Positions 1,223-20,608 of a stretch of 64,000 nucleotides of DNA are shown one piece after another (the stretch's first letter is position 1; each line of letters opens with the position of its first letter). A model generated the notes under the pieces. The model worked only from the letters and a program-made list of their open reading frames with translations. It was not told the origin of the DNA and searched no databases. The stretch is taken from the NCBI GenBank assembly GCA_002633005.1, contig NMRA01000071.1, forward strand, positions 92,976 to 156,975, read 5' to 3'. The translations under genes and the position numbers were made by a program. The DNA is from Phoronis australis (lineage: Eukaryota > Animalia > Phoronida).

Positions 1223-1277
1223 CTGCATCACCCGTTTATAGACAGCATGGCAAGTCACACGGTGGCACAATGGTATA
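1223..1277 (-). CDS. unc-13: candidate unc-13 alternative exon 3b: IPLCHRVTCHAVYKRVMQ (55 nt)
   Basis: tttgttttgatcag acceptor, CAG|gttagt donor; same length and phase (2-0) as 1361-1415, open frame, VxKR aligned position for position. Confidence 0.65.
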
Positions 1278-1360
1278 CTGATCAAAACAAAGGTTTAGAA
1301 CATAAACAAGTGTACAGCTGATTGCACATCCTACTAAGCCAACACCCACGATAGTCATAC

Positions 1361-1415
1361 CTTTAGCAGTCTCTTAAGCACTGTCTTTTCGCACTGCTGA
1401 GAGAACATAGCCAAA
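1361..1415 (-). CDS. unc-13: unc-13 exon 3a, MUN: LAMFSQQCEKTVLKRLLK (55 nt)
   Basis: tttttag acceptor, AAG|gtatga donor; conserved CEKTVLKR. Confidence 0.93.
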
Positions 1416-2242: not shown

Positions 2243-2918
2243 TGTGGAATACTACACAAAGTCAGTGTGTGAAGTTCTGCACTGCAGAATATTACACAAA
2301 TTTTGCGGAAATATTACACAAATTTTGCAAAAATTATGCAAAAAGCGTGTGGGATATTTAGCAGGATATTAAATTGGCCCATTAGCAGCTTGACGATTGA
2401 CAAAAACAAGTGGCATAGATGAGATGTCAGGTGTGTCTGTGTCTGTTTAAGGAACAGTTCACAAACCAATGAGCAAGTCTTCCATAGATTAATTACTGTT
2501 TGTATTGAAACATGGATACTTTCATTTGTTGAGAATGGAATTTATTTCATCTTTATTGCAGACTCAGCAAAACTATTCTGTCTTAAGAACTGTCTTAGGA
2601 ACTATGTTAGGATCTTGTCTTAGGAACTGTCTTAGGAACTGTTTCGCAAGACAAAAGTGGAACCATACCGCAACTGTCACATTGATTAATTGTTTGTTTT
2701 GAAATTTTAGAGCAGCAAAGAAATGCTTCGATATAACAAGCCTGTTTGTAATAAATACAAAATTGACAAAACTTGTTTCCATCAATCAACAAGCTGCTAT
2801 TGGTCCAATTTAATATCCTGCTGAAAATCCCGCAGGCTTTTAGTGTAGTGTCTACAAAATTCATGAAATATTCTGCCTTCTGGAACTTCACACACTGACT
2901 GTGCAATATTCTGCATGG
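2243..2918. mobile_element. degenerate MITE-like element
   Basis: inverted pair agtcagtgtgtgaagttc (~2260) / gaacttcacacactgact (~2883), plus gcagaatatt/aatattctgc; ends and TSD not resolved. Confidence 0.4.
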
Positions 2919-3658
2919 GAAAAATGAAATACAAATTAAGGAAAAAAATTGAGCAAATAAAGTAACACTGCAATCATGTTAATTAATGCAAGTTATAGAT
3001 TTGTTTCGTATCATTTTTTATGGCCTTAAGCGGATAAAAACGAGGTGCAGACTAAATAAGAGAGCCTCATTTGAAAAAAGATCGCCTTACCTGTGGGAGC
3101 TCATTAGTCTGCCCAGAATAAAAAGTTGGTTGAGATATGATGTAAGACAGCCACATTGTGAAAGCAAGTTGGGATCATCGAAAATGCAGCCACGTGTTAT
3201 TGGTCATGGACATGCAGAGAAATAACATGTTATTGGACAAGGACGTCCAGTGAAATAACGTGTTATAGGACAAGGACGTCCTGTGAAATTGGAAAACCCA
3301 TTTTGGACACAGTATTTTTGAAATCCTTTTGGTGCATGACTTGATATGTGAACTTTACACAGTTAAAATAACCAACACCTCCAAGTCAAAAGTTGCAAAC
3401 TTACAAATTCTTGAAATCAATCAAATGTCTAATTCAAGGGGAAGTTAAATTTTGAGCAATGCAGATTGGACATATGGTGCAGTTACAACAGAAGGTTATG
3501 GCAAACACTTTTCAATTCAAATACAACATGGCAGTGCTGGAATTTAATTTTGACACACTGCCACCAACAAAAAATTGCACATTTTAACAATAATGTGATC
3601 AGCCTTTCAAACACTTTGAACATCTTGCAATTAAATTGCATGAAAATGAAGAGAAATT

Positions 3659-5982: not shown

Positions 5983-7010
5983 TCAGTGGACTGGATGGGT
6001 TACCAGTGGACTGAATGGGTTACCAGTGGACTGAATGGGTTACCAGTGGACTGAATGGGTTACCAGTGGACTGAATGGGTTACCAGTGGACTGAATGGGT
6101 TACCAGTGGACTGAATGGGTTACCAGTGGACTGAATGGGTTANNNNNNNNNNNNNNNNNNNNNNNNNNNNNNNNNNNNNNNNNNNNNNNNNNNNNNNNNN
6201 NNNNNNNNNNNNNNNNNNNNNNNNNNNNNNNNNNNNNNNNNNNNNNNNNNNNNNNNNNNNNNNNNNNNNNNNNNNNNNNNNNNNNNNNNNNNNNNNNNNN
6301 NNNNNNNNNNNNNNNNNNNNNNNNNNNNNNNNNNNNNNNNNNNNNNNNNNNNNNNNNNNNNNNCCAGTGGACTGAATGGGTTACCAGTGGACTGAATGGG
6401 TTATTAGTGGTGTAGGATGTCAAATGCGTTTTGAGTTCAGAGTTAACGATAGATGGCGCGGCAAGTCAGTGCTTTGTATAGTTTTCAGGTTCGCCGCTTG
6501 TAACGCTGCCTGTCACTTCCTGTTTTTTGCTGAATTTATGAAAGTCGTGTTTTTTCTTGCTCCTTGTAAGTTGTTATTTTCAACGTCATTCCATTCGATG
6601 TTATAGCTTGTCGTTTGCTTCATAGTTGCTCAGTATATTAGAGTTATTTTCCATTCCTTTTCGAGGCTTTGTGTGCTTGCACATTGGCGGTTCGCTCCAC
6701 TGAACTTGACCACGCGGTCATTTGACATTGGTTTGACCTCTAGTTCATTTTGAGTTTGCAATTAGAAACCAGTTGTTTCGTCTATTAGTTTTGGTGCTAT
6801 TATTCACTGTGATACTTGTTGATTTGTTTTCTTAATTATTTATTTGTTTATTTCGCTAACATTTGTTTTTTAATTTTCTTTTAGGAAACCTTATGTACTT
6901 CTTGTACGACCGTATGCCAGACCGTATGGCCTCACGATGTTGAATAAATGAAATGTTTTGAATCCTACAAGTGGACTGAATGGGTTACCAGTGGACTGAA
7001 TGGGTTATCA
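5983..7010. repeat. 20-bp satellite with assembly gap (N 6143-6363), interrupted by a solo LTR
   Basis: (ccagtggactgaatgggtta)n on both sides of the gap and of the insertion. Confidence 0.95.
6411..6969. mobile_element. solo LTR, 559 bp
   Basis: TGTAGGAT...ATCCTACA termini, 5-bp TSD AGTGG (6406-6410 and 6970-6974), AATAAA near the right end. Confidence 0.8.
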
Positions 7011-7410: not shown

Positions 7411-7619
7411 CCACAAGCAGTTTGGAGCAAGTAGTGGCTAAAGGTATGTCCATGAAGACGCAGCTTGACACTCGCACATATGTTAAAATGTAACTAAATT
7501 CATGTGACTTCAACAAGTTGTGGCACGGTACAATGACTGACACAAGAAGACCTAATTTAACAACAATACATAGAACATACAATAATTAGAGAGAGAGGAG
7601 ACAGTAAAGGCAGGCTAAC

Positions 7620-7864
7620 CTCTTGGAGAATATTCCACTGAGTGTATCCAACACACCATTCAAGGACAGCTGAAGTTCCTTCAGAATATCAGCAGCATTC
7701 TTATCCACATTATCACCTCCCATGGCTTTAAACACTTTATCAAGTTGGATGCGCAGTTGTTGGATGTTGTTCATGAGGATACAAGCCACCTTCTGTTTAC
7801 CACAATAATGTGGAAAGTCTGCACGCAGCAAGTCAGCATAGGCAAGCAGCACTTTATTGACAGT
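7620..7864 (-). CDS. unc-13: unc-13 exon, MUN: TVNKVLLAYADLL...CILMNNIQQLRIQL...LSGIFSK(S), 245 nt
   Basis: ttttcag acceptor, AG|gttagc donor; lies within ORF 7586..7903. Confidence 0.95.
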
Positions 7865-14156: not shown

Positions 14157-14254
14157 CTAAAAAACAAAACAGACTCCCTTTTGTGCACTTGCAGTCACCG
14201 TGGCAATCTTCAACAATTCTGGTTCTGGTTTATTTTTTAATATTTTTGGATTTT

Positions 14255-14380
14255 TAAGTTGTGTGGGATGTACGTACTGAAATGGGGGGATGCCATTACC
14301 TTCTGTGAGATGTACGTACTGAAATGGGGAGATGCCATTCAGTTGTGTGGGATGTACATACTGAAATGGGGATGCCATTA
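14255..14380. repeat. ~38-bp degenerate repeat, 3 copies
   Basis: tgtgtgggatgtacgtactgaaatgggg..atgccatt. Confidence 0.8.
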
Positions 14381-15810
14381 CGTACGGCAGCTTAAATCCA
14401 TTTGGTGAAAATAAAATTAATGTTCAGTTATTACATACTAACAGCAAGAAATCACACTACATATTATTAAACCTTGCATTTTAAAATGGAGTTTTCCTCC
14501 GCACAACTTTCCATCATTTTGGTAATTGTATCTCGGCCTTTTGTTGTAGGATGTATAGAAACTTCTGCATTGGTTGTGTTTAAAGACCTTTCAAATTAAA
14601 ATACAAGATGTACTTTCACCAAGTCTTGGCAGAATGTGCAAGATTTTGTCCATATCCTCTTGTGCAGAAATGTCAGTGCATTCCTCTCCAGAAATTTCCA
14701 TTACTAGTTATATAATTCTTGTACCATGATAGTATGTTACCTAGTTGCAGAAAGAAAATTTTCAATGGCAGACATCTTGACGCTGAACTCGCCTTTTTTC
14801 ACGGCAACAAATGCACTTGACTTCTGAATGCACGAGTCCGCATGGGCTTGGTGCAAAGCTGTGACAGCGCAAAGCTTTGCACCAATGTGAGTAAAAAATT
14901 GACAAAATGAAATCTGACACAAAATTAGTGTCATAAAAAGCTATTCTCTTCCTTGAGTAAACTTAATTATTTACCAGTGTTGCAATATGACATTCTACCT
15001 TTATTTTGCTGTTAAAATTGTAGTGCAGTTCTTTGCATCAGCTTTTGATGCCATGAATTATTACGTCACTATTGGCCAGTTTCTTTTTCCCTAATTATTC
15101 AATCAAATATTTTTCTCTTCCACGAGGTTGTGAACACTTCACAACAAATTATCGGAACTGGTTTCATTTCGTTACAAGTTTTTAGTATTTTAATACCTGC
15201 AAAAATATTGCTGCTACATAGCTATCATCATCTCCCATAACACGTCACAAAATTTTAAGAAATGGTGCACGCACGTGCCCTGAGCGTACTGTTTTAAAAA
15301 TGACACAGACTTTTCTTTGTTAAAAAAAGCAAAGAATTACGCAAGAAAATGACATTTATTAAAGTGTTTACCACTTAAACGGCTGCAACGGGCAAGATGA
15401 GCATTAGTTGAACCCCAGATTTTGCAGGTTTGAATGACGAAATATGTACTATACATTCAAATTGTTCATAACTTATTGGTAATACCAGTTTGTACCTTGC
15501 CCACCCTTCAACACACAGTCAGGTAAAACATCCAGGTAAAAATTTTGACCTCCAAAAATTCCAGATTGAAATTTTGGGTTTAAGCCAGAAAATCCAGGCA
15601 GAAAAATGTTCCTAAAATTGTCACTAGGAACACTGTTCTCAGATTTTCGTCGGGTTCTCATCTGAAATGTTTACTTGTATTTGCTTGCATTCACTAGAAA
15701 TACAATCAACTAAGTTACTTACTAATATTCACGACTGAATATTTTAAGGTTGTTAATCATTTTTTCACAACAAAGAATGGAAAGACAAAACTTGTTAATT
15801 ACAAAGCACT

Positions 15811-18800
15811 GGGTCTGATTGACAGCTTTTAAATATAGGGTCTGATTGACAGCTTTAAAATATAGGGTCTGATTGACAGCTTTTAAATATAGGGTCTGAT
15901 TGACAGCTTTTAAATATAGGGTCTGATTGACAGCTTTTAAATATAGGGTCTGATTGACAGCTTTTAAATATAGGGTCTGATTGACAGCTTTTAAATATAG
16001 GGTCTGATTGACAGCTTTTAAATATAGGGTCTGATTGACAGCTTTTAAATATAGGGTCTGATTGACAGCTTTTAAATATAGGGTCTGATTGACAGCTTTT
16101 AAATATAGGGTCTGATTGACAGCTTTTAAATATAGGGTCTGATTGACAGCTTTTAAATATAGGGTCTGATTGACAGCTTTTAAATATAGGGTCTGATTGA
16201 CAGCTTTTAAATATAGGGTCTGATTGACAGCTTTTAAATATAGGGTCTGATTGACAGCTTTTAAATATAGGGTCTGATTGACAGCTTTTAAATATAGGGT
16301 CTGATTGACAGCTTTTAAATATAGGGTCTGATTGACAGCTTTTAAATATAGGGTCTGATTGACAGCTTTTAAATATAGGGTCTGATTGACAGCTTTTAAA
16401 TATAGGGTCTGATTGACAGCTTTTAAATATAGGGTCTGATTGACAGCTTTTAAATATAGGGTCTGATTGACAGCTTTTAAATATAGGGTCTGATTGACAG
16501 CTTTTAAATATAGGGTCTGATTGACAGCTTTTAAATATAGGGTCTGATTGACAGCTTTTAAATATAGGGTCTGATTGACAGCTTTTAAATATAGGGTCTG
16601 ATTGACAGCTTTTAAATATAGGGTCTGATTGACAGCTTTTAAATATAGGGTCTGATTGACAGCTTTTAAATATAGGGTCTGATTGACAGCTTTTAAATAT
16701 AGGGTCTGATTGACAGCTTTTAAATATAGGGTCTGATTGACAGCTTTTAAATATAGGGTCTGATTGACAGCTTTTAAATATAGGGTCTGATTGACAGCTT
16801 TTAAATATAGGGTCTGATTGACAGCTTTTAAATATAGGGTCTGATTGACAGCTTTTAAATATAGGGTCTGATTGACAGCTTTTAAATATAGGGTCTGATT
16901 GACAGCTTTTAAATATAGGGTCTGATTGACAGCTTTTAAATATAGGGTCTGATTGACAGCTTTTAAATATAGGGTCTGATTGACAGCTTTTAAATATAGG
17001 GTCTGATTGACAGCTTTTAAATATAGGGTCTGATTGACAGCTTTTAAATATAGGGTCTGATTGACAGCTTTTAAATATAGGGTCTGATTGACAGCTTTTA
17101 AATATAGGGTCTGATTGACAGCTTTTAAATATAGGGTCTGATTGACAGCTTTTAAATATAGGGTCTGATTGACAGCTTTTAAATATAGGGTCTGATTGAC
17201 AGCTTTTAAATATAGGGTCTGATTGACAGCTTTTAAATATAGGGTCTGATTGACAGCTTTTAAATATAGGGTCTGATTGACAGCTTTTAAATATAGGGTC
17301 TGATTGACAGCTTTTAAATATAGGGTCTGATTGACAGCTTTTAAATATAGGGTCTGATTGACAGCTTTTAAATATAGGGTCTGATTGACAGCTTTTAAAT
17401 ATAGGGTCTGATTGACAGCTTTTAAATATAGGGTCTGATTGACAGCTTTTAAATATAGGGTCTGATTGACAGCTTTTAAATATAGGGTCTGATTGACAGC
17501 TTTTAAATATAGGGTCTGATTGACAGCTTTTAAATATAGGGTCTGATTGACAGCTTTTAAATATAGGGTCTGATTGACAGCTTTTAAATATAGGGTCTGA
17601 TTGACAGCTTTTAAATATAGGGTCTGATTGACAGCTTTTAAATATAGGGTCTGATTGACAGCTTTTAAATATAGGGTCTGATTGACAGCTTTTAAATATA
17701 GGGTCTGATTGACAGCTTTTAAATATAGGGTCTGATTGACAGCTTTTAAATATAGGGTCTGATTGACAGCTTTTAAATATAGGGTCTGATTGACAGCTTT
17801 TAAATATAGGGTCTGATTGACAGCTTTTAAATATAGGGTCTGATTGACAGCTTTTAAATATAGGGTCTGATTGACAGCTTTTAAATATAGGGTCTGATTG
17901 ACAGCTTTTAAATATAGGGTCTGATTGACAGCTTTTAAATATAGGGTCTGATTGACAGCTTTTAAATATAGGGTCTGATTGACAGCTTTTAAATATAGGG
18001 TCTGATTGACAGCTTTTAAATATAGGGTCTGATTGACAGCTTTTAAATATAGGGTCTGATTGACAGCTTTTAAATATAGGGTCTGATTGACAGCTTTTAA
18101 ATATAGGGTCTGATTGACAGCTTTTAAATATAGGGTCTGATTGACAGCTTTTAAATATAGGGTCTGATTGACAGCTTTTAAATATAGGGTCTGATTGACA
18201 GCTTTTAAATATAGGGTCTGATTGACAGCTTTTAAATATAGGGTCTGATTGACAGCTTTTAAATATAGGGTCTGATTGACAGCTTTTAAATATAGGGTCT
18301 GATTGACAGCTTTTAAATATAGGGTCTGATTGACAGCTTTTAAATATAGGGTCTGATTGACAGCTTTTAAATATAGGGTCTGATTGACAGCTTTTAAATA
18401 TAGGGTCTGATTGACAGCTTTTAAATATAGGGTCTGATTGACAGCTTTTAAATATAGGGTCTGATTGACAGCTTTTAAATATAGGGTCTGATTGACAGCT
18501 TTTAAATATAGGGTCTGATTGACAGCTTTTAAATATAGGGTCTGATTGACAGCTTTTAAATATAGGGTCTGATTGACAGCTTTTAAATATAGGGTCTGAT
18601 TGACAGCTTTTAAATATAGGGTCTGATTGACAGCTTTTAAATATAGGGTCTGATTGACAGCTTTTAAATATAGGGTCTGATTGACAGCTTTTAAATATAG
18701 GGTCTGATTGACAGCTTTTAAATATAGGGTCTGATTGACAGCTTTTAAATATAGGGTCTGATTGACAGCTTTTAAATATAGGGTCTGATTGACAGCTTTT

Positions 18801-20176
18801 AAATATAGGGTCTGATTGACAGCTTTTAAATATAGGGTCTGATTGACAGCTTTTAAATATAGGGTCTGATTGACAGCTTTTAAATATAGGGTCTGATTGA
18901 CAGCTTTTAAATATAGGGTCTGATTGACAGCTTTTAAATATAGGGTCTGATTGACAGCTTTTAAATATAGGGTCTGATTGACAGCTTTTAAATATAGGGT
19001 CTGATTGACAGCTTTTAAATATAGGGTCTGATTGACAGCTTTTAAATATAGGGTCTGATTGACAGCTTTTAAATATAGGGTCTGATTGACAGCTTTTAAA
19101 TATAGGGTCTGATTGACAGCTTTTAAATATAGGGTCTGATTGACAGCTTTTAAATATAGGGTCTGATTGACAGCTTTTAAATATAGGGTCTGATTGACAG
19201 CTTTTAAATATAGGGTCTGATTGACAGCTTTTAAATATAGGGTCTGATTGACAGCTTTTAAATATAGGGTCTGATTGACAGCTTTTAAATATAGGGTCTG
19301 ATTGACAGCTTTTAAATATAGGGTCTGATTGACAGCTTTTAAATATAGGGTCTGATTGACAGCTTTTAAATATAGGGTCTGATTGACAGCTTTTAAATAT
19401 AGGGTCTGATTGACAGCTTTTAAATATAGGGTCTGATTGACAGCTTTTAAATATAGGGTCTGATTGACAGCTTTTAAATATAGGGTCTGATTGACAGCTT
19501 TTAAATATAGGGTCTGATTGACAGCTTTTAAATATAGGGTCTGATTGACAGCTTTTAAATATAGGGTCTGATTGACAGCTTTTAAATATAGGGTCTGATT
19601 GACAGCTTTTAAATATAGGGTCTGATTGACAGCTTTTAAATATAGGGTCTGATTGACAGCTTTTAAATATAGGGTCTGATTGACAGCTTTTAAATATAGG
19701 GTCTGATTGACAGCTTTTAAATATAGGGTCTGATTGACAGCTTTTAAATATAGGGTCTGATTGACAGCTTTTAAATATAGGGTCTGATTGACAGCTTTTA
19801 AATATAGGGTCTGATTGACAGCTTTTAAATATAGGGTCTGATTGACAGCTTTTAAATATAGGGTCTGATTGACAGCTTTTAAATATAGGGTCTGATTGAC
19901 AGCTTTTAAATATAGGGTCTGATTGACAGCTTTTAAATATAGGGTCTGATTGACAGCTTTTAAATATAGGGTCTGATTGACAGCTTTTAAATATAGGGTC
20001 TGATTGACAGCTTTTAAATATAGGGTCTGATTGACAGCTTTTAAATATAGGGTCTGATTGACAGCTTTTAAATATAGGGTCTGATTGACAGCTTTTAAAT
20101 ATAGGGTCTGATTGACAGCTTTTAAATATAGGGTCTGATTGACAGCTTTTAAATATAGGGTCTGATTGACAGCTTT
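15811..20176. repeat. 27-bp satellite, ~162 near-identical copies, ending at a single-N join (20177)
   Basis: (gggtctgattgacagcttttaaatata)n; I saw only one variant copy (~15855). Confidence 0.99.
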
Positions 20177-20177
20177 N

Positions 20178-20608
20178 CATTCTAACATACCACATCATAC
20201 AGTGTTACGTTCATTCTAACATACTACATCATACAGTGCTACGTCCATTCTAACATACCACATCATACAGTGTTACGTTCATTCTAACATACTACATCAT
20301 ACAGTGCTACGTTCATTCTAACATACCACATCATACAGTGCTATGTTCATTCCAACATATCACACTATACAGTGTTACGTTCATTCTAACATATCATAGT
20401 GTTACCTTCACTCTAATATACCATATCACTCAGAGTTACCTTCATAATAACATATCAAATCATACAATGTTACCTTCATTCTAACACAGGATATTGTACT
20501 TGTTACCTTCATTATAACGTGGCACATTGCAAGGGTGTAACCTTCATTCTTATGAAACCTATTGTATAGAATTGCCTTCAATCCAGAATGTTAATGGAAA
20601 TTGGTTAC
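20178..20608. repeat. 34-bp minisatellite apparently derived from the adjacent exon donor junction
   Basis: cattctaacataccacatcatacagtgttacgtt; exon-proximal copies read gttaccttcatt, like the true junction ggttaccttcattctaaa. Confidence 0.85.

Follow-up and report, generated by a model that had tools for sequence, protein, structure and literature searches.

RESULTS

Host gene and assembly

The window analysed here, a stretch of 64,000 nucleotides from the phoronid Phoronis australis (contig NMRA01000071.1), carries exons of unc-13, which encodes the vesicle-priming protein Unc13. By tblastn of homologs, exons for C1, C2B, and MUN follow one another in that order on the minus strand, the first at about 60.7 kb and the last ending at 0.88 kb. 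Used as a query, the exon at 7610-7864 retrieved Unc13 proteins (73 matches among 203 candidates, the best at 71 to 72% identity) and also Munc13-1 structures. Judged by these matches, the window contains the C-terminal portion of the unc-13 gene of a lophotrochozoan; ordered C1, C2B, and MUN coding exons whose best matches are Unc13 place it among the orthologues of Unc13/Munc13-1, -2, and -3. Over 637 aligned residues, it is 78 to 84% identical to Unc13 of molluscs, nemerteans, brachiopods, and hemichordates, and a tree on 638 residues puts the host on a long, unresolved branch among lophotrochozoans (support with Lingula, 0.34).

The assembly is imperfect in places. A run of N lies at 6143-6363, and homolog residues ∼952 to 1110 find no match in the interval 14158-20606, which holds a 30-bp tandem array of ∼4.4 kb and an N at 20177; the exons for MUN-A/B are probably missing from the assembly there. 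Next to real exons lie incomplete tandem copies of their ends, splice flanks included (49248-49195 and 28824-28580), and the intron upstream of the exons studied here contains nested inverted repeats (2040-2411 and 2771-3089) that form a roughly 1-kb MITE-like foldback element.

Two 55-nt exons in one phase

Between two constitutive MUN exons lie the canonical exon, here called A, and a divergent twin, B (Table 1). The first-pass annotation had picked out B from the letters alone, and its details hold: 55 nt, a phase shared with A, a gap of 83 nt between the two, an acceptor ending in gatcag, a donor reading CAG/gttagt, and the peptides of both exons. Adjacent, 55 and 55 nt long, in one phase, and bounded by AG and GT, A and B have the geometry of a mutually exclusive cluster. 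With one of the two included, whichever it is, the upstream and downstream exons stay in frame; inclusion of both places a stop inside B, 16 nt before its end, and skipping both shifts the frame. The acceptor of the downstream exon is duplicated in tandem over 48 nt (960-1000 and 1008-1048), which creates a cryptic AG near 1001 that no listed RNA joint uses.

TABLE 1 Coordinates of the exon pair, its neighbours, and the other tandem exon pairs of the gene
Feature	Position in window	Strand	Length	Evidence	Remark
Upstream constitutive exon	4882-4718	minus	165 nt	tblastn; RNA joints 4882/7620, 1415/4718, 1277/4718	
Exon A	1415-1361	minus	55 nt	tblastn, RNA joints	Canonical exon; peptide LAMFSQQCEKTVLKRLLK; equivalent to Munc13-1 1372-1389
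A-B intron	1360-1278	minus	83 nt	Depth 0 in X1 and X2; unspliced reads in X3	
Exon B	1277-1223	minus	55 nt	RNA joints, profile and splice-site ranks	Divergent twin; peptide IPLCHRVTCHAVYKRVMQ
Intron from B to downstream exon	1222-950	minus	273 nt		Holds 48-nt duplicated acceptor
Downstream constitutive exon	949-878	minus	72 nt	tblastn, RNA joints	Encodes rest of helix H13
Tandem exon pair, C1-C2B linker	46173-46067 and 46017-45911	minus	107 nt each	tblastn	49-nt intron
Tandem exon pair, C2B	36961-36834 and 36785-36655	minus	128 and 131 nt	tblastn	48-nt intron

RNA reads for A and B

RNA evidence came from three raw-read runs under the label of the host species (X1, X2, and X3), of each of which 18 to 19% was read; a contig set (X4) was without coverage of the exons. 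Read mates are not independent, and the counts are small: the upstream exon joins B in 6, 0, and 1 reads of X1, X2, and X3 (4 distinct starts in X1) and joins A in 5, 6, and 1, and A joins the downstream exon in 8, 8, and 0. The joint from B to the downstream exon was absent from the first listing, and the region was realigned without the flanking exons. After realignment, depth 6 in X1 was confined to 1222-1280, with 0 in both introns beside B; all six B reads carried a loose end that equals the upstream exon, and four carried one that equals the first letters of the downstream exon. Having both loose ends, these four reads carry upstream-B-downstream. A reads ran straight into the downstream exon in 8 of 9 cases in X1 and in 6 of 8 in X2. 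Both junctions by which the first-pass annotation proposed to recognize B are thus in the RNA, 4718 to 1277 as a joint and 1223 to 949 as loose ends, and its claim of mutually exclusive splicing is borne out by reads of the forms upstream-A-downstream and upstream-B-downstream.

At the listing threshold of 3 reads, below which rarer A-to-B or skip products would fall, no A-to-B joint was listed (none of the six X1 reads at the B acceptor comes from A), nor was any joint that skips both exons in X1 to X3. Each exon has at least three junction reads that bridge the other, and the two are neither joined by listed reads nor jointly readable in frame. In X3, two partly aligned reads raise the depth over B, and unspliced reads, free of listed differences from the assembly, cross the A-B intron at a depth of 2. 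We regard the splicing of B as real with near certainty. Its share of the exon reads is 6 of 15 in X1 (about 40%; 6 B versus 9 A) and 0 of 8 in X2. This suggests sample-dependent regulation of B, but the difference falls short of significance (Fisher P = 0.058 by reads, 0.22 by distinct starts).

Exon B against chance

Open segments of 55 nt between AG and GT are common by chance, with 67 on the minus strand of the window, so that the size of B is in itself no evidence for it. One further such segment, at 2910-2856, was dropped, with a poor donor, a position inside the foldback element, and no RNA joint. Scored with a splice-site matrix built from the other sites of the gene, B ranks first of 66 candidates at 17.2, ahead of A at 13.1, whose own sites were within the training set, and of the next candidate at 9.2. 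A profile of 54 family peptides gives B +4.5 bits, a score reached by none of 64 other segments (maximum, −0.5) and by 0.1% of 22,925 open 18-codon windows. In shuffles, the P value is about 0.001 for the family-profile score of B and, for A against B, 0.009 by BLOSUM and 0.011 by nucleotide; the likeness expected of a duplication is thus weak but above the null.

Divergence and constraint

A and B are identical at 22 of 55 nucleotides—4, 11, and 6 of 18 at codon positions 1, 2, and 3—and at 3 of 18 residues (15 replaced; BLOSUM score, 10). The excess of identity at position 2 over position 1 (Fisher P = 0.04 in a post hoc test) is the pattern expected under selection on residue class. About 1.1 to 1.2 substitutions per site separate the exons, with third positions near random. 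For a neutrally decaying copy to keep AG, GT, an open frame, and the exact length, simulation gave a probability of 10^−6 to 2 × 10^−3, a figure that assumes 0.05 to 0.1 indels per substitution and is to be read in the knowledge that only surviving copies get noticed. We infer that B is an old tandem duplicate of A kept by selection, and consider selection on B likely. The age that the first-pass annotation gave to B agrees with this divergence but finds no match in cross-species conservation, there being no counterpart of B in the animals examined; its expectation that similarity-based annotation would probably miss B fits a 3-of-18 identity near or below the detection range.

The substitutions are not uniform in kind (Munc13-1 numbering is used here and below). 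Non-polar positions mostly remain non-polar, V-x-K-R matches A, and some residues of B have natural precedents in the family: V1378, V1387, P1373 (1 of 79 peptides), and an aromatic residue, F, at 1384 (2 of 54). B also loses six invariant or nearly invariant family positions, L1372, C1379, E1380, K1381, L1388, and K1389, as well as F1375.

The exon in MUN subdomain D

The Munc13-1 crystal construct is described by Wang et al. 2019 (PMC6325239; PDB 6A30) as residues 933-1407, EF, and 1453-1531. The aligned PDB chain ends in VLPP-EF, and when residues are numbered backward from P1407, the exon falls at 1372-1389 and L1372, T1373, A1376, and L1388 come out as named in that paper. The C-terminal MUN placement made by the first-pass annotation is therefore correct and can be narrowed: the site is in MUN-D, whose limits are given in PMC9623535 as 1319-1531. 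L1372, T1373, A1376, and L1388, with Y1485, F1486, A1488, and V1491, form the pocket that Wang et al. describe for W89 and W90 of synaptobrevin-2 (Syb2). The pocket adjoins D1358, mutation of which impaired priming in the same work; the equivalents of D1358 and I1364 are in the upstream exon. At 1372, 1373, 1376, and 1388, four of the eight pocket residues, A has L/A/S/L and B has I/P/H/M. Across 79 family peptides, L is invariant at 1372 and 1388; at 1376, 74 peptides have A or S and none has H, and at 1373 a single peptide has P.

A model of a homolog from a single sequence (pLDDT, 36.6) was discarded for an AlphaFold model from an 82-row alignment (mean pLDDT, 79.8; 91 to 96 over the exon block), and a fold search with the homolog model returned the MUN domain of Munc13-1. 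The model has a helix to 1378, a turn at C1379-E1380, and a helix from 1381, so that the exon is the end of helix H12, the turn, and the start of H13. Since the helix runs through 1378, the proline of B would come to lie within the final turns of H12, and the C-E turn is replaced as well; with the loss of invariant positions, this proline may make the B protein unstable. It is argued in a review (PMC9623538) that vesicle anchoring is not compatible with the pose that the synaptobrevin peptide takes in the crystal; if so, the pocket may not matter in vivo. A full-text literature search, made on main texts and covering few subscription papers, found no report of an alternative exon for segment 1372-1389.

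Distribution in other animals

The 380 homologous proteins comprise 364 with the canonical segment, 1 that skips the exon, 15 without the region, and none that is B-like; 364 of the 365 that reach the position keep the canonical form. Isoform X15 of Ostrea edulis has an annotated skip of the 55-nt exon and ends after the frameshift, and oysters may harbor an unannotated twin exon. As a positive control, two forms of the C2B or linker exon were recovered in 13 of 32 species groups; the MUN exon had two forms in none of the 32. A fourteenth flagged group, with "two linker forms" in Apostichopus, was dropped for a difference of one residue. The 113 new proteins among the best 120 of 473 profile matches, from a search dominated by its scaffold, were all canonical.

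A motif scan of metagenome contigs yielded 106 loci with the segment: 54 have both introns, 33 only the 5′ intron, 12 another 5′ boundary, and 7 neither, and an exact swap of the 55-nt unit is possible only where both introns persist. Of the 54 loci with a standalone 55-nt exon, 27 (21 distinct) span the whole downstream intron and 11 span both introns. No B-like exon was found at these 54 loci, where the best profile score among 154 open AG-55-GT/GC candidates is 2.7 and their best BLOSUM score to B is 4, versus a self score of 102. When B was extended by 24 intronic codons as a query, no protein shared three 5-residue words with it. Two matches to B in representative sequences, from a direct search, were rejected as repeat-summed and mainly in the intronic tail. 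B appears lineage restricted as far as seen, in searches that are biased to canonical sequences and whose nearest relative has 84% identity overall.

Exclusivity and the other tandem pairs

Mutually exclusive exon clusters are defined by Hatje et al. 2017 (PMC5740500) by features that include neighbouring position, similar length, the same frame, and bridging junction reads. By these features, A/B is a validated exclusive pair at the three-read level. Steric exclusion needs a distance from donor to branch point of less than 50 bp, as stated in the same paper. Candidate branch-like motifs in the A-B intron, identified by motif, lie at least 58 nt from the donor, and at 83 nt this intron probably exceeds what steric exclusion alone would allow; a choice made by splice factors, with decay of double-inclusion products, would be likelier. 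No docking-type inverted repeats at A, B, or their acceptors occur among the 25 longest of 36 pairs, and intronic duplex energies around A and B are unremarkable on an uncalibrated scale.

That A/B would be a "third pair", as the first-pass annotation put it, fits the gene, which has two other tandem exon pairs (Table 1). Two forms of the C1-C2B linker exon are also seen in isoforms of Mytilus, Patella, and Haliotis, and two forms of the C2B exon in 7 bivalve and brachiopod isoform sets.

DISCUSSION

The exon B described here in a phoronid unc-13 gene is real and expressed, is mutually exclusive with its neighbour A, and has diverged from it to an unusual degree; exclusive exon pairs as such are already known. 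With a confidence somewhat above even, we favor the reading that B is a functional alternative H12-turn-H13 hairpin of MUN-D, used in exclusion of A and predicted to reshape the synaptobrevin pocket and tune vesicle priming. B would have arisen by tandem duplication of A and been kept by selection, and exclusivity would follow from splice-site choice together with nonsense-mediated decay, double inclusion placing a stop in B. With its non-polar positions mostly retained, the B hairpin would still fold, and I/P/H/M in place of L/A/S/L would narrow or remodel the pocket, above all through the histidine where the family has alanine or serine. Use of A or B may depend on sample or cell type. That the pocket itself is the functional target of B we hold at slightly under an even chance, and it is unlikely, to our mind, that the B form is a natural Unc13 whose synaptobrevin pocket is closed or respecified and which primes another vesicle class or does so without the linker contact.

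The same replacements can be read in the opposite direction, with B as a regulated in-frame off-switch. Its product would be an Unc13 that is unstable or unable to prime and that might act as a dominant negative in oligomers, and selection would have kept it to lower activity in some cells without mRNA decay. The missing C-E-K turn, otherwise invariant, the missing F1375, the proline in H12, and sample-dependent use of B would all fit. However, the retained hydrophobic pattern, the V-x-K-R match, and the conservation of second codon positions suggest selection on the fold, and a frameshifting skip, such as the one annotated in Ostrea edulis, would be a simpler switch; we judge the off-switch unlikely.

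More doubtful still is that B is a decaying duplicate of A without function, spliced as tolerated noise. Heavy divergence at conserved sites, the lack of an orthologue in the animals examined, and the absence of B from run X2 are what decay would leave, but B makes up about 40% of the X1 exon reads (6 of 15), its splice sites are the strongest of 66 candidates, and length, frame, and splice sites have stayed intact at ∼1.1 substitutions per site, for which the simulated joint probability is at most 2 × 10^−3. That B was exonized de novo from the intron, its 55 nt selected only for frame and its likeness to A owed to chance, is improbable: the nucleotide identity of 22 of 55 (shuffle P = 0.011), the BLOSUM score of only 10, and acceptor flanks that are little alike in A and B would allow it, whereas the profile score of B exceeds those of all 64 chance segments and of 99.9% of 22,925 open windows, and exon duplication in this gene is evident from its two other tandem pairs. 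An assembly or paralog artefact, with A and B from different haplotypes or genes, might be suspected from the assembly problems elsewhere in the window (the N gap at 6143-6363 and the unmatched homolog residues ∼952 to 1110) but is largely refuted and extremely improbable, since unspliced X3 reads, for which no differences are listed, bridge the A-B intron at a depth of 2, and reads of either exon continue into identical upstream and downstream exon letters.

Should B indeed close or respecify the synaptobrevin pocket, nature would have supplied a test of the disputed synaptobrevin-MUN interaction, and, together with the linker and C2B pairs, A/B would give one gene a 2 × 2 × 2 splice code for the independent tuning of lipid and calcium sensing and of SNARE handling. 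CEKTVLKR belongs to the best-conserved stretches of Unc13, and its expressed, in-frame replacement at 15 of 18 residues means that this core is swappable by splicing. Because the swap changes half of a reported pocket with a contested role, it is a ready-made reagent for that model. More generally, exon twins can diverge almost beyond recognition and escape similarity-based annotation.

Three known systems put the pair into perspective. Compared to H12-H13 of Munc13-1 MUN-D, exon A is orthologous to 1372-1389 and keeps the small or aliphatic pocket residues, whereas B has other residues at 15 of 18 positions, among them four of the eight that form the pocket. The C2B and C1-C2B linker pairs of mollusc and brachiopod Unc13 belong to the same gene and share the tandem-pair design, and both are present in the window; they occur in two forms in 13 of 32 species groups, whereas the MUN exon has a single form in 32 of 32, and their introns in this gene, 48 to 49 nt, are typical of steric exclusion, in contrast to the 83 nt between A and B. 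Finally, like the clusters described by Hatje et al. 2017 (PMC5740500), A and B are neighbours of equal length and frame with bridging reads and a length not divisible by three, but they differ from those clusters in their very low similarity, which is near or below the reach of similarity-based prediction.
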